Positions 12,925-16,258 of a stretch of 61,654 bases of DNA are shown in pieces. The notes beneath the pieces were generated by a model, which saw only the letters and a program-made list of their open reading frames with translations, made no database searches and was not told where the DNA came from. The stretch lies in assembly GCA_964565195.1 (NCBI GenBank), contig CAZMCQ010000001.1, forward strand, positions 133,309 through 194,962, given 5' to 3'. Origin of the DNA: an uncultured Candidatus Saccharibacteria bacterium. Its GTDB lineage: Bacteria; Patescibacteriota; Doudnabacteria; UBA920; 2-01-FULL-46-14. The position numbers and the translations under genes are program-made. The stretch's first letter is position 1, and each line of letters starts with the position of its first letter.

Positions 12925-13105
12925 CCGAGACATTAATGATAAAGGCCACAAAGGGCCAAGACGTTATTAGTCTCGGAAACTGGCGAGCGCTGTCGGACAG
13001 GTGTCAGAAAGGCGCAACAGCCATTAGCGTTCCAGTCCTAAGCGCTCATATATCACAGGAGGCGACAGAGATGTTTAAGGATAAACCAACGCTGCTTCAG
13101 TCGCC
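12925..13105 (-). ncRNA. Stem-loop dual-guide RNA array A (3 units; TIGR/bridge-RNA-like)
   Basis: Plus-strand units: CCGAGACA[TTAATGATA]AAGG..CCA[AGACGTTAT]TAGTCTCGG; GGACA[GGTGTCAGA]AAGG..CCA[TTAGCGTTC]CAGTCC; GGCGACA[GAGATGTTT]AAGGATAAACCA[ACGCTGCTT]CAGTCGCC. Confidence 0.8.
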
Positions 13106-13125
13106 CCCGCAAGCAGAAGAAGTTC

Positions 13126-14286
13126 CTATCTGCTCGCAACCTTTACTCTCCGAAAGCGGTCTCTTGCCCTTCGCAGTTCTATCTGCGGAGCATTCTTATA
13201 AATCAGGGAGTCAAGACCTTGGGCTATCTCCCGCGGTTTGGGAAAGAGCACCTCGGGCTTCAGGAACTGACGGTAGGACCAGTCATACCCTTTGGCATAA
13301 CCTAAGGCCTGCCTGACCCGATCTTTTGCTTCCGGAGAAATCGTGAGCACGGAGTTTCTAAAGGCCTTATCGAGAAGGGCCTTGAAATTGCGGCCCACCA
13401 GCAAAAGATGAAAGATCGCCGCGATCCCTGGAGAGCGGCGCAGGAAATAAAGCCTAGGGTCATTCCACTCCTGCGGCCAAATCTCTTTTGCCACATTCAT
13501 TATACAAACCAGGACACGAAACTGCTGTTCCTGACCCAATGCGCGAATGGCTGAATGAGGGGATGAAGCTACCTGCCGCAAATCCCGCATAATTCCGCTG
13601 ATGTTGATAATACCCAAAGTCTGTTCTCGCAACATTTGGGCAGGCGGGATTTTTCCCAGAAGCGGTTCAAGCTTTGAAGCATCCTCTCCTTCGGGTTGTC
13701 GCCTCGAAGCACGCTCTTCCAAAAAGATCAAGCCCCGCAGCGGTGAACCCGGCTCGGTCGCGAGTCGTTTGCCAATCCCGTAAGCGAGTTTACTGATCGG
13801 GTCAGTAAATAAATCGCCTCGATCCTGAATCTGCAAAACCAAATGAGTGTCCAGTTTTAACCGCTTGAGCTGCTGGATAAAACGGCGAAGCCGTTCCTGA
13901 TAGGATGTGTTCAGGGTCGCGGTGACTTTGAACTCCCAACGATCACGTTCTTCGGAAGTCAAAAGATGGAGACTCGCAAGTCGGTGTTGGCCATCGTCCA
14001 CCAAAAGATACGCATCGCCCTCGCGGTGAAGAGTTTGACGCTTTTGATCAAGCCGCCAGCTCCCCCGCAGGTCGCCAAGAATCGGTTCGGCAAAACTTGC
14101 ATTTGATCCGCGCATAAACTCAACCATCTGTTGCACGTGGCTATAATTGAGTTTGCGCTCCACGCCTTTCTCTACCTCGTTGAACCGCTCCACCCTGGCT
14201 AATGACATGAGCTCTTCCGCCTTTACCACGAAAGTGAAAAGTTCACTGCCGGGCTGTCCTTCTCGGATGTAGTGATACTCAAACAT
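13126..14286 (-). CDS. DGQHR-domain protein (DndB-like/ParB-Srx fold), 386 aa
   Basis: LLVDDGQHRLASL motif; GVERKLNYSHVQQMVEF resembles the usual QR..N..H..I..Y segment; RBS GGAGG 8 nt before ATG 14286. Confidence 0.85.
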   Translation of the reverse strand: MFEYHYIREGQPGSELFTFVVKAEELMSLARVERFNEVEKGVERKLNYSHVQQMVEFMRGSNASFAEPILGDLRGSWRLDQKRQTLHREGDAYLLVDDGQHRLASLHLLTSEERDRWEFKVTATLNTSYQERLRRFIQQLKRLKLDTHLVLQIQDRGDLFTDPISKLAYGIGKRLATEPGSPLRGLIFLEERASRRQPEGEDASKLEPLLGKIPPAQMLREQTLGIINISGIMRDLRQVASSPHSAIRALGQEQQFRVLVCIMNVAKEIWPQEWNDPRLYFLRRSPGIAAIFHLLLVGRNFKALLDKAFRNSVLTISPEAKDRVRQALGYAKGYDWSYRQFLKPEVLFPKPREIAQGLDSLIYKNAPQIELRRARDRFRRVKVASR

Positions 14287-14421
14287 TTCTCCTCCTAATG
14301 GTTTGATAAAATCCTCTTTCGGCATAATAGCCATGAGGATACGCCATTGATTTATCGAGCGCTTTGATACTCGCTCATAAGGATTACCCACAAAAACGCA
14401 AGTCTTAGCGCCCGATTTAAT

Positions 14422-14450
14422 AATCTATTTGAAAAATCATCTTTTGTCAA
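14422..14450 (-). promoter_or_regulatory. sigma70-type promoter of the DGQHR gene
   Basis: TTGACA(14450-14445)-17 nt-TAGATT(14427-14422). Confidence 0.6.
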
Positions 14451-14451
14451 T

Positions 14452-14487
14452 AAAAAACCCCGAACCAGTAATGAAACCGGTTCGGGG
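14452..14487 (-). terminator. Intrinsic terminator closing RNA array B
   Basis: Minus strand CCCCGAACC-GGTTTCATTACT-GGTTCGGGG-TTTTTT. Confidence 0.8.
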
Positions 14488-14492
14488 CAAGT

Positions 14493-14660
14493 AGCGCCAC
14501 CGAGGCCAAAGGAAAAACCAAGCGAAAGTAAGGCGCTCCTTATGCCGAAACAGGACACAATAAGGATTAACCAGTCCCGTGCAAGTTTCGACAAACTGGC
14601 GAGCGCTTTCGGACATGAGCTGGCAAGGATTAACCACCGCCGGCTAAGTCCTAAGCGCTC
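14493..14660 (-). ncRNA. Stem-loop dual-guide RNA array B (3 units), starting at the stop codon of the Tas/IS110-like gene
   Basis: AGCGCCA[CCGAGGCCA]AAGGAAAAACCA[AGCGAAAGT]AAGGCGCT; CGAAACA[GGACACAAT]AAGGATTAACCA[GTCCCGTGC]AAGTTTCG; GGACA[TGAGCTGGC]AAGGATTAACCA[CCGCCGGCT]AAGTCC. Confidence 0.8.
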
Positions 14661-15958
14661 ATAGCTCGTTGCTCGTCCATCAGTCCCTCAAACCGGCGCC
14701 ATTCATTCCAGATATACTGCAGGAACTTCTGGCCGAGCCAGCGCAAGGCCCGCTTGCGAGCGATCACTGGTATTCCCTTGTAAGGTTCCGGAAGGGTCGG
14801 CTCCTTGATGCCGCGCGCCATCTGTTCGGCTCTGGTCTGCTCCACGAAAGTCGTAAAGCTTCCCAGAGTCATGTCAGCAGGGACCTTGCCTTCCTGTTTG
14901 CGTTGCCCGAGCAGCTTCTCTATCTCGCGGCCATAACGCCACTCCAGATGCTGCTTCCAGGGATCATTTGGGGGATTGGTATTCACCTGAAAGGTAAAAT
15001 ACCAGACCCCCTGCTGAAAAACGTGATCCCAGTTCGCGCGCTGGCCTTTGGTCGGTTTGGGAGCGACCCAATTGCCGTTTGATCTCACCAGATGGTAGCC
15101 GGCAAAGGCCTTAAGCTTCTGGAAAGTCGGAAAGCGTCTGATATCCATAATGGAGGAGATGAGATATCCAGCGATGCCGGCCGCGCATCCTGATTTGCGC
15201 AACGGCGCAAAAACCGCCTGATAGAGTGGCAGTTCTTCGAGTTGCACCTCCAGAGCGGTCTTCAGCTTGGACTCGAGGCTCTTGTAAAATTTGACTGCCA
15301 TCCCTGTTTTAGGATCAAGTTCGGCCTCGACCTGCTCCTCGGCCGGCAGCGTTTCCAAGACAGACTCAATCGCTTCCTGGATCACGGGCAAATTGCCAAT
15401 CCCGCCGAAATATTCTAGGTCTTGCTGGAGATGCCGCAGCCGGTTGGCCGTGGCGATGCGGATTTTCCGCTGCACAGTCCAGTACATCCGCGTGAGTAGT
15501 CTCACTCGCAGATAGCGCTCGTCTTCCAATTCGCGGAATGGATAAAAAAGTTCCGGATTAGAAAGCGCATGCTGACAGAGAATCGAGGCCGCGCTGTCTA
15601 TTTTCGCGCCGACCTTTCCCTCTTCATGGCGCTGGCGCTTCTGTTCGTCGGAGATGATCCAGGTTGGAAGCCGCAGCAGTTTTATACCGCGCTTTGCAGC
15701 AGCCAGACAAAAACGGTCATTCTGACCGCCGAGCTCGGTGAAAACAATGTCATCCGCCTGAAGCTGTTCCAGAAAGCTATTTGTCGACATATTGGCCGCA
15801 AGCTTTGACTTTCTTGCTTTTGCTGCGCCGATGCTGAAAATCCCTGTCTGTTTGGCGCCCTTGCCGCCTGCAAGCTCAATGCGCCGCGGTTGTTCACTGC
15901 CTTGCCAAGCGTAAACTTCGCTGCCGCCGACTGGTGCATAATCAACTGCGTAATTCAT
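14651..15958 (-). CDS. IS110-family/Nop-domain RNA-guided protein (TasR-like: RuvC-like N-terminus, coiled coil, Tnp/Nop C-terminus), 435 aa
   Basis: N-terminal YAVDY and VFTELGG acidic motifs; C-terminal SSIMDIRRFPTFQKLKAFAGY (IS110 GDIRRF..K.L.A.AG), APKPTKGQRANWD and ARKRALRWLGQKFLQYIWNEWR; RBS AAGGAGG before ATG 15958. Confidence 0.75.
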   Translation of the reverse strand: MNYAVDYAPVGGSEVYAWQGSEQPRRIELAGGKGAKQTGIFSIGAAKARKSKLAANMSTNSFLEQLQADDIVFTELGGQNDRFCLAAAKRGIKLLRLPTWIISDEQKRQRHEEGKVGAKIDSAASILCQHALSNPELFYPFRELEDERYLRVRLLTRMYWTVQRKIRIATANRLRHLQQDLEYFGGIGNLPVIQEAIESVLETLPAEEQVEAELDPKTGMAVKFYKSLESKLKTALEVQLEELPLYQAVFAPLRKSGCAAGIAGYLISSIMDIRRFPTFQKLKAFAGYHLVRSNGNWVAPKPTKGQRANWDHVFQQGVWYFTFQVNTNPPNDPWKQHLEWRYGREIEKLLGQRKQEGKVPADMTLGSFTTFVEQTRAEQMARGIKEPTLPEPYKGIPVIARKRALRWLGQKFLQYIWNEWRRFEGLMDEQRAMSA

Positions 15959-16038
15959 AATCCTCCTTCGGTCAAGTCCTTTGTAGGACACGTTTTTTGT
16001 ACAAGGAAATGGCAGAACGTCTGCCACTCCAACGCGCT

Positions 16039-16067
16039 ATTGTATTATTTTTCCAGAATAATGTCAA
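16039..16067 (-). promoter_or_regulatory. sigma70-type promoter of the Tas/IS110-like gene
   Basis: TTGACA(16067-16062)-17 nt-TACAAT(16044-16039). Confidence 0.75.
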
Positions 16068-16078
16068 CCCAAAGAAAA

Positions 16079-16258
16079 GGGAGCACCACCAGGGCCGAAG
16101 GTTAAAAAACCAAACGGAAGTAAGGCGCTCCCCTTTAAGCTGAGAACATCGGACGACAAGGATAAACCATGCCCAGACAAGTCTCAGCTAAACTGGCGAG
16201 CGCTTTTGGACATGCCTTTCTAGGGAATTCACCAGCCAAATGAAAGTCCTAAGCGCTC
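16079..16258 (-). ncRNA. Stem-loop dual-guide RNA array C (3 units)
   Basis: GGGAGCACCA[CCAGGGCCG]AAGGTTAAAAAACCA[AACGGAAGT]AAGGCGCTCCC; AGCTGAGAACA[TCGGACGAC]AAGGATAAACCA[TGCCCAGAC]AAGTCTCAGCT; GGACA[TGCCTTTCT]AGGGAATTCACCA[GCCAAATGA]AAGTCC; the last hairpin on the minus strand is followed by TTTTCTTT. Confidence 0.8.

Follow-up and report, generated by a model that had tools for sequence, protein, structure and literature searches.

A highly probable stem-loop TIGR-Tas locus with a DGQHR-domain partner gene in a Patescibacteria bacterium

Organisation of the locus

We analysed 61,654 nucleotides (nt) of contig CAZMCQ010000001.1 (positions 133,309 to 194,962, forward strand), the whole of which is called the window below and is numbered from its first letter, and we describe here a region on its minus strand that carries a tasR gene, a DGQHR-domain gene and ten repeated RNA units. 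This region is very likely a stem-loop TIGR-Tas locus (TIGR for tandem interspaced guide RNA) of a Patescibacteria bacterium, that is, of the candidate phyla radiation (CPR), in which the units would serve as guide RNAs (tigRNAs) with two spacers each (A and B). The two genes and the ten putative tigRNAs, with the score of each unit in bits, are as follows.

14651..15958, minus strand: tasR, 435 amino acids, with an N-terminal RuvC-like fold, a coiled coil and a Nop-type RNA-binding C-terminal domain
13126..14286, minus strand: DGQHR-domain (DndB/ParB-like) gene, 386 amino acids, motif VDDGQHR
16198..16258 (core 16211-16246), minus strand: putative tigRNA U1, outer stem GAGCGCU/AGCGCUC plus GGAC/GUCC, spacers A = TCATTTGGC and B = AGAAAGGCA, 39.2 bits
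16139..16189, minus strand: putative tigRNA U2, stem AGCUGAGAC/GUUCUCAGCU with one bulge, spacers GTCTGGGCA and GTCGTCCGA, 41.2 bits
16079..16132, minus strand: putative tigRNA U3, stem GGGAGCGCC/GGUGCUCCC, spacers ACTTCCGTT and CGGCCCTGG, 41.8 bits
14606..14656, minus strand: putative tigRNA U4, spacers AGCCGGCGG and GCCAGCTCA, 44.9 bits
14543..14593, minus strand: putative tigRNA U5, stem GUCGAAAC/GUUUCGGC, spacers GCACGGGAC and ATTGTGTCC, 48.1 bits
14490..14540, minus strand: putative tigRNA U6, stem AGCGCC/GGCGCU, spacers ACTTTCGCT and TGGCCTCGG, 46.4 bits
14360..14410, minus strand: putative tigRNA U7, degenerate, outer stem GGGCGCU/AGCGCUC intact, spacers GCGTTTTTG and ATGAGCGAG, 40.8 bits
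13058..13108, minus strand: putative tigRNA U8, stem GGGGGCGAC/GUCGCCUCC, spacers AAGCAGCGT and AAACATCTC, 45.9 bits
12986..13047 (core 12998-13035), minus strand: putative tigRNA U9, scaffold as in U1 and U4, spacers GAACGCTAA and TCTGACACC, 36.3 bits
12923..12978, minus strand: putative tigRNA U10, stem CCGAGAC/GUCUCGG, spacers ATAACGTCT and TATCATTAA, 36.8 bits

The ten units, which lie across 12923-16258, were found by reading the minus strand (12600-16600) together with a regular-expression (regex) scan, and share one layout of stem, C-UU, 9 nt, UG-G, a loop of 5-10 nt, C-CUU, 9 nt, UG and stem (with 8-nt stem flanks, U1 runs from 16203 to 16254 and U9 from 12990 to 13043). Both variable segments are 9 nt long in 10/10 units, while the loops measure 5 nt in six units, 6 nt in one, 8 nt in two and 10 nt in one; the loop of U10 forms a GGCC/GGCC mini-hairpin. 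In minimum-free-energy folds the outer stem encloses both variable segments in every unit, and alignment with MAFFT keeps all ten in register. Two units are imperfect, namely U7, in which the final UG has become UA and the inner stem is eroded, and U2, with its one-base stem bulge; in U4 the 5' arm of the outer stem overlaps the final codons and stop codon of tasR. The first-pass annotation of this DNA had described nine units of fixed geometry on this strand, and its geometry, its strand and the stems that it listed are all borne out, but there are ten units, the extra one being the degenerate U7.

The units do not form a single tandem block, and sub-arrays precede, separate and trail the two genes. 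There are three modules with the common scaffold ATGAGCGCTTAGGAC...GTCCNAAAGCGCTCGCCAGTTT, each followed by one or two more units, and these lie upstream of, between and downstream of the tasR and DGQHR genes. The array units exceed chance expectation, as a permissive motif-plus-stem regex gave 9 matches in the window, 8 of them within the 3.3-kb stretch and on one strand, compared with a mean of 1.4 in first-order Markov simulations of the window. Likewise, a covariance model built from the ten units found no further match at E<=0.1 in the 61-kb window and none at the same threshold in 44 kb of control loci.

A CRISPR array was considered and rejected, since in such an array direct repeats 25-36 nt long take turns with spacers that are about as long, which the repeats of this array do not fit. 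Its sole direct repeats are scaffold pieces of 18-36 nt lying ~1.6 kb apart, and the earlier expectation that CRISPR finders would pass over the array holds. A search of the array against Rfam gave no snoRNA match and only a sub-threshold hit to Pseudomon-1, which merely recognises a hairpin plus terminator.

The TasR protein

At the sequence level, PDB entry 9mty (TIGR-TasR) was the only solved structure to match the 435-residue protein significantly, with E=5.5e-8 for the single sequence, and the match grew with profiles to E=1.3e-22 (14 sequences) and 2.4e-39 (40 sequences). In addition, NCBIfam NF052498 (TIGR_Tas_endo, TIGR-Tas system RNA-guided endonuclease) was matched over positions 2-215 of 215 with E=3.1e-24; PADLOC returned no match for TasR. 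An AlphaFold2 model (predicted local distance difference test score, pLDDT, 81; predicted template modelling score, pTM, 0.77) shows an N-terminal RNase H-like pattern of strands and helices, long coiled-coil helices and a helical C-terminal domain. Using Foldseek with this model, we obtained 9mty as the top match (E=1.9e-10, template modelling score 0.65), followed by the IS621 and ISCro4 recombinases and then TasH. The last helix of the model stops at residue 424 of 435 and the remaining tail, LMDEQRAMSA, contains neither Y nor H and is not conserved; TasR is thus predicted to lack the C-terminal Y/H processing loop, as in the stem-loop clades.

The first-pass annotation had compared the UG after each guide with the box C-like motif of Nop-bound RNAs. 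The adjoining protein is a Nop-domain Tas, which agrees with the Nop part of that comparison, but in the naming used for TIGR the UG after the guide is box D and the CUU before the guide is box C. The units of stem-loop TIGR-Tas systems have two spacers of 8-12 nt, mostly 9.

RNA units in related loci

Related loci were fetched for proteins 51-65% identical to the window TasR; a scan of genome contigs gave two loci, one repeating locus L008, and a scan of metagenomes gave nine, two of which repeat L001 and L007. The ten-unit covariance model found 76 more units beside homologous genes on Patescibacteria contigs, 52 of them in seven further loci and 24 in a second set of eight, and all 86 model matches from the window and these 15 loci lie on the tas strand. 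The regex, applied to eight related loci, matched 55 times on the strand that carries the homologous gene and never on its complement.

When spacer lengths were freed to 7-12 nt in the homologous loci, spacer A remained 9 nt in every regex match, and in six distinct matches spacer B measured 10 nt after CCCT, a form that also fits C-CUN plus 9; all of these matches lie on the tas strand. When both spacer lengths were varied between 7 and 11 in a grid over nine loci, there were 67 matches at 9+9 and 6 over the other 24 combinations. In an alignment of 62 units from eight loci, the outer stems pair in 90% of cells compared with 35-57% when partners are slid, and the covariation score is 0.61 compared with 0.15 or less, with 182 double-sided changes; 8/9 outer pairs show changes on both sides, and the inner pair next to the loop also switches from G-C to A-U in several units. 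The search with a covariance model in CPR genomes that the first-pass annotation had proposed therefore recovered the 76 further units, its claim of selection on RNA structure is upheld by stems that covary in the wider alignment, and the 9-nt length that it gave for both segments is constrained in homologous loci.

We also observed that a few stem scaffolds recur with unrelated spacers in genomes whose TasR is 51-65% identical. These are AGGAC..GUCCRAAAG, GGGGGCGAC..GUCGCCCC, GGGAGCGCC..GGCGCUCCC and CCGAGAC..GUCUCGG, which are seen in U1/U4/U9, U3/U6, U8 and U10 and in loci L007, L010, L001, L008 and L011. Because of this recurrence the stems are not free to vary, and they behave like several repeat classes.

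The spacers themselves were followed in two pairs of loci. Between L001 (7260-7620) and L015 (1270-1640), whose TasR proteins are 90% identical, spacer columns differ by 29% and the scaffold by 5.7% (a fivefold excess, p=6e-7), while the fourfold-degenerate sites of tasR differ by 28%, close to the 29% of the spacer columns. Judged from these sequences, spacers change at about the neutral rate within conserved scaffolds. Between L011 (4296-4644) and L008 (9137-9480), one unit retains 17/18 spacer bases together with a compensatory stem change, and other units share the scaffold but have unrelated spacers. The two pairs suggest that guides can mutate in place and can also be replaced. As a separate observation, U3 and U6 of the window are near-duplicates, identical at 25/27 bases over stem, spacer A and loop, and a unit of L011 (2802-2855) has the same scaffold and a similar spacer A (ACTTCGTTC); this similarity could reflect a shared half-site or a recent duplication.

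Search for targets

The target site was taken to be spacer A, 0-2 nt and the reverse complement of spacer B, an arrangement that we derive from the published 8-nt 3' overhangs. Within the window, a self-target search at 3 mismatches gave 5 matches compared with 3.4 for shuffled spacers. Exact scans of viral contigs with eight units gave 1, 0, 8, 4, 0, 65, 3 and 0 matches, the 65 belonging to U1, and in these eight scans no viral contig was matched by two units. The lone match of U2 falls in a tail gene of a phage of 55% GC, with no other guide nearby.

Of the 65 matches of U1, 60 lie in one mosaic family of viral contigs (among the IMG/VR contigs L036-L100, for example L038 7037-7055). In the ~60 contigs of this family the 19-mer TCATTTGGC-C-TGCCTTTCT is invariant between mosaic flanks, and on the opposite strand it holds a stop codon, a ribosome-binding site and a start codon ATG, where a cytosine methyltransferase gene is separated from the gene that follows. 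This 19-mer may be a conserved module-junction sequence of the phage family. Counted as independent families, however, the U1 matches number five, a figure that falls inside the spread of the other units. When 61 guide pairs from related arrays were compared with the same phage family, there was one extra match of 17/18 where ~0.08 would be expected, and re-paired guide controls gave none, a result that is suggestive only. We treat the U1 phage match as a lead and not a result, as it may be due to chance.

Transcription signals and proposed mechanism

Four signals on the minus strand bear on how the region may be transcribed.

16039..16067, minus strand: promoter-like site TTGACA-17-TACAAT, 11/12 matches, upstream of tasR
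14422..14450, minus strand: promoter-like site TTGACA-17-TAGATT, 10/12 matches, upstream of U7 and the DGQHR gene
14457..14488, minus strand: intrinsic-terminator-like hairpin of 13 pairs followed by a T run, closing the putative tasR-U4-U5-U6 transcription unit
12894..12921, minus strand: intrinsic-terminator-like hairpin of 12 pairs followed by a T run, closing the array

From these promoter-like and terminator-like sites we would expect two or three minus-strand transcription units, the proposed transcripts being U1-U3, tasR with U4-U6, and U7 with the DGQHR gene and U8-U10. By analogy with published relatives, the transcripts would be cut to single stem-loop tigRNAs of roughly 50-60 nt. 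Solved structures of TasR and of stem-loop Tas proteins suggest that a dimer of the 435-residue TasR would then hold each tigRNA, with one protomer reading the box C/D pair (CUU/UG) that lies at the outer stem's base and the other reading the identical pair that flanks the loop. Under the published rule, the two 9-nt spacers would each pair with a different strand of a single 18-bp DNA site, which from 5' to 3' consists of spacer A, then 0-2 nt, then spacer B in reverse complement, and no adjacent motif would be needed. Whether TasR binds its site or cleaves it, the probable place of action of the DGQHR/ParB-like partner is that bound site or downstream of it.

Identity of the system

TIGR-Tas systems, which like CRISPR target DNA under RNA guidance and whose two spacers each pair with a different strand of a single DNA site, were defined by Faure et al. 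(2025, PMC12045711), who also described a second, stem-loop architecture with variable palindromes instead of edge repeats and a CPR clade of TasR with stem arrays. Subsequently, Xu et al. (2026, bioRxiv 10.64898/2026.09.09.750476) catalogued 2,559 stem-loop arrays, and reported that units can stand upstream of, downstream of or inside tas, that PateTasR has two symmetric CUU/UG pairs as its boxes, and that the stem-loop clades are without the C-terminal Y/H processing loop. The window units fit this description point by point. The stem-loop architecture has thus already been published for CPR bacteria, and the locus adds another example; the part of the supplementary text of Faure et al. that was searched holds no mention of four related contig names or of Zambryskibacteria.

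Several points weigh against the identification as a stem-loop TIGR-Tas locus. The NF052498 match scores 86 bits, below the curated cut-off of 100, and Pfam finds nothing for the 435-residue TasR, even at E<=10. The alignment used for covariation was fitted to the model, and its cell counts overstate independent events because several stem scaffolds recur across loci. Furthermore, no convincing natural target emerged, as a search of the window (both arrangements, gaps 0-2) gave no self-target with 2 or fewer mismatches, and the numbers from the viral-contig scans are compatible with chance.

DNA cleavage or binding

In the predicted model of TasR, D6 and E75 fall at the ends of strand 1 and strand 71-75, respectively, and D121 just before helix 123-133. 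The N-terminus of 9mty, with its D11, did not align with TasR, and the triad is placed by strand and helix positions in the predicted model. We lean slightly towards guide-directed DNA binding and silencing over cleavage or nicking by the RuvC domain, because both characterised stem-loop TasRs are inactive, with dead RuvC domains, and are transcriptional repressors (bioRxiv 10.64898/2026.09.09.750476), and because E75 is replaced by A or G in the close homologs P0002 and P0007, whose loci retain the largest arrays.

What tells against this lean is that D6, E75 and D121 could be placed as the RuvC D-E-D triad and are mostly kept in the clade. The competing account, to which we give a little less than an even chance, is a TIGR-Tas system with an active RuvC nuclease that cuts both strands of foreign DNA and serves in defence or in competition between mobile elements, and not as a repressor. 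For it speak the three residues at the expected sites in the predicted fold, the presence of D6 in 29/40 family members and in every close homolog having an N-terminus, and the acidic residue kept at position 121 in most of the clade; the long CPR relatives (P0018-like, 492-572 amino acids) carry A/V at the first RuvC position and K/R at the third. Near-neutral turnover of spacers, some of them wholly replaced, is what a conflict system would show, and the U1 guide is an exact match to a conserved phage junction. On the other side, E75 is absent in P0002 and P0007 despite their large arrays, the fourth acidic residue of 9mty (the second Asp of its K-x-D-x-x-D motif) has no counterpart in this TasR, both stem-loop TasRs tested to date are inactive, and the phage match may be chance.

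A narrower version of the nuclease account, in which a nuclease-competent stem-loop TasR and a dedicated DGQHR/ParB-like partner form a CPR anti-phage system with U1 targeting the junction TCATTTGGC-C-TGCCTTTCT, seems to us unlikely. If true, it would supply the first active stem-loop TasR and one of the first natural TIGR targets to be identified. In either case, the locus bears on whether any stem-loop TasR still cuts DNA.

IS110 elements and box C/D guide RNAs

It is very improbable that the region is instead a mobile element of IS110/IS1111 type, with a bridge-RNA-guided recombinase and with the units as target- and donor-binding loops of bridge RNAs. An IS110 bridge RNA had been our first idea, from the protein motif IAGYLISSIMDIRRF...AFAGYH, and the fold and profile of TasR also match the IS621 and ISCro4 recombinases, PHROGs and NCBI call relatives transposase, a single unit resembles one bridge-RNA loop, and the module is found in differing genomic neighbourhoods across genomes. 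The idea was dropped because 9mty is far closer than IS621 (E=2.4e-39 and 8.2e-7, respectively, with the 40-sequence profile), because the catalytic serine of IS621 (ESGSS) is missing and aligns to a position that varies between N, D and K in this family, and because there are ten or more single-loop units instead of one two-loop RNA. Likewise, the Pfam families DEDD_Tnp_IS110 and Transposase_20 are absent even at E<=10, and no guide pair matches the flanks of the island or the window elsewhere at 2 or fewer mismatches in either arrangement. As to existing records, public annotation labels relatives 'transposase' (P0011) and PHROG 4285 carries the category integration and excision, which makes it likely that TIGR loci of this clade are misread as IS110 elements.

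Box C/D-like guide RNAs, with a Nop5-like protein directing RNA modification such as 2'-O-methylation and not DNA targeting, are hardly credible here even though the protein has a Nop-type domain, each RNA holds two guides flanked by box-like motifs and Faure et al. (PMC12045711) speculated that the CPR TasR clade could be an intermediate toward snoRNPs (small nucleolar ribonucleoproteins), since the boxes are CUU/UG and not RUGAUGA/CUGA and permit no kink-turn, neither fibrillarin nor L7Ae is among six neighbouring proteins, the Tas proteins tested act on DNA and not RNA (PMC12045711), and guide divergence at the neutral rate would be unexpected for pairing with conserved rRNA or tRNA.

The DGQHR partner gene

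The 386-residue product of the second gene of the stem-loop TIGR-Tas locus matches TIGR03187 with 66 bits, above the cut-off, and gives weak matches to DndB and DpdB; its predicted model has a pLDDT of 87.5, and a fold search returned weak ParB-N matches only. In 7/8 distinct loci with enough sequence, a homolog with 52-59% identity is present downstream of tasR, L001 being the exception. More remote homologs (30-36% identical) on other CPR contigs are solitary, with no units nearby. In L007, we also observed a HicB/HicA antitoxin-toxin pair (8041-8560) that lies inside the TIGR locus and separates tasR from the DGQHR gene; this locus holds the largest array among the loci examined, with at least 21 units over ~6 kb, and its TasR, P0007, has G in place of E75.

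Faure et al. (2025, fig. S14, PMC12045711) describe TasParB, a DndB-like protein with a DGFHR motif that is operonised with tasA and dual-repeat arrays. By analogy, the DGQHR partner looks like a counterpart of TasParB for a RuvC-bearing TasR with stem-loop units.

Genomic surroundings

The locus is flanked by housekeeping genes, namely ftsW/rodA and, on the opposite side, the gene for ribosomal protein L25. An open reading frame (ORF) of 111 codons (16229-16564, minus strand) is situated between ftsW/rodA and U1 and extends into U1, with a Shine-Dalgarno-like site and a promoter-like site at 16587-16615. This ORF has no match in Pfam, NCBIfam or PHROGs, and may be a leader transcript rather than a gene.

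Across the window and L001, L004, L005, L007 and L008, the tasR (plus DGQHR) module stands between housekeeping genes that differ from genome to genome, including recR/rplU, a site before rpoB, ftsW/rplY and others. No integrase adjoins the tasR module in the loci inspected, with the exception of an rve_3 gene in L010 (358-1224).

Comparison with known systems

The locus is a clean, compact and chromosomal example of TIGR-Tas with clear promoter-like and terminator-like sites. It does not change the general picture, as the literature has contained CPR examples of TasR with stem-loop TIGR arrays since 2025. Three features are particular to this clade, namely the DGQHR partner gene, the retained acidic residues of the RuvC domain and the near-neutral change of spacers within conserved scaffolds.

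The systems of PateTasR and CsTasR share with the locus a CPR host, a TasR that combines a RuvC-like N-terminus with a Nop domain and ends in a short C-terminal tail without the Y/H loop, and units that stand upstream of, downstream of and overlapping tas; in these units the palindromic stems vary, the CUU/UG boxes are symmetric and there are two 9-nt spacers. At 435 residues, the window TasR is intermediate in length between PateTasR (329 residues) and CsTasR (547 residues). It is 24-29% identical to the long P0018-like relatives (535-572 residues), which we take to be CsTasR-like, and unlike these it has acidic residues at the first and third RuvC positions. The window locus further differs from PateTasR and CsTasR in its linked DGQHR partner and in an array of three-unit modules whose scaffolds recur across genomes. 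On guide change, it contributes near-neutral spacers in scaffolds shared between genomes, with some guides retained.

TaTasR (9mty) is the best match in both sequence and fold, and shares 9-nt tandem spacers, a coiled-coil dimer and RuvC acidic residues. However, its tigRNAs are 36 nt long, with conserved edge and loop repeats and CCA/UG boxes, whereas the window has variable stems and CUU/UG, and the second Asp of the K-x-D-x-x-D motif of TaTasR is missing in the window TasR. IS110/IS621 elements resemble the locus in a Nop-like RNA-binding domain, a RuvC-like N-terminus and RNA loops with two guides for opposite DNA strands, but they have a catalytic serine and one two-loop bridge RNA, in contrast to the many single-loop RNAs of the window, where there is no evidence of transposon ends.

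Finally, TasParB is, on its published description, similar in that a DndB-like protein of the ParB superfamily stands beside tas, with TIGR units before, between and after both genes. Compared by that description only, it is distinguished by a nuclease-less TasA, dual-repeat arrays and DGFHR, in place of the canonical DGQHR, RuvC-bearing TasR and stem-loop units found here. The locus therefore bears on the role of the ParB/DndB-like partner, which is linked here to a RuvC-bearing TasR and not only to TasA.

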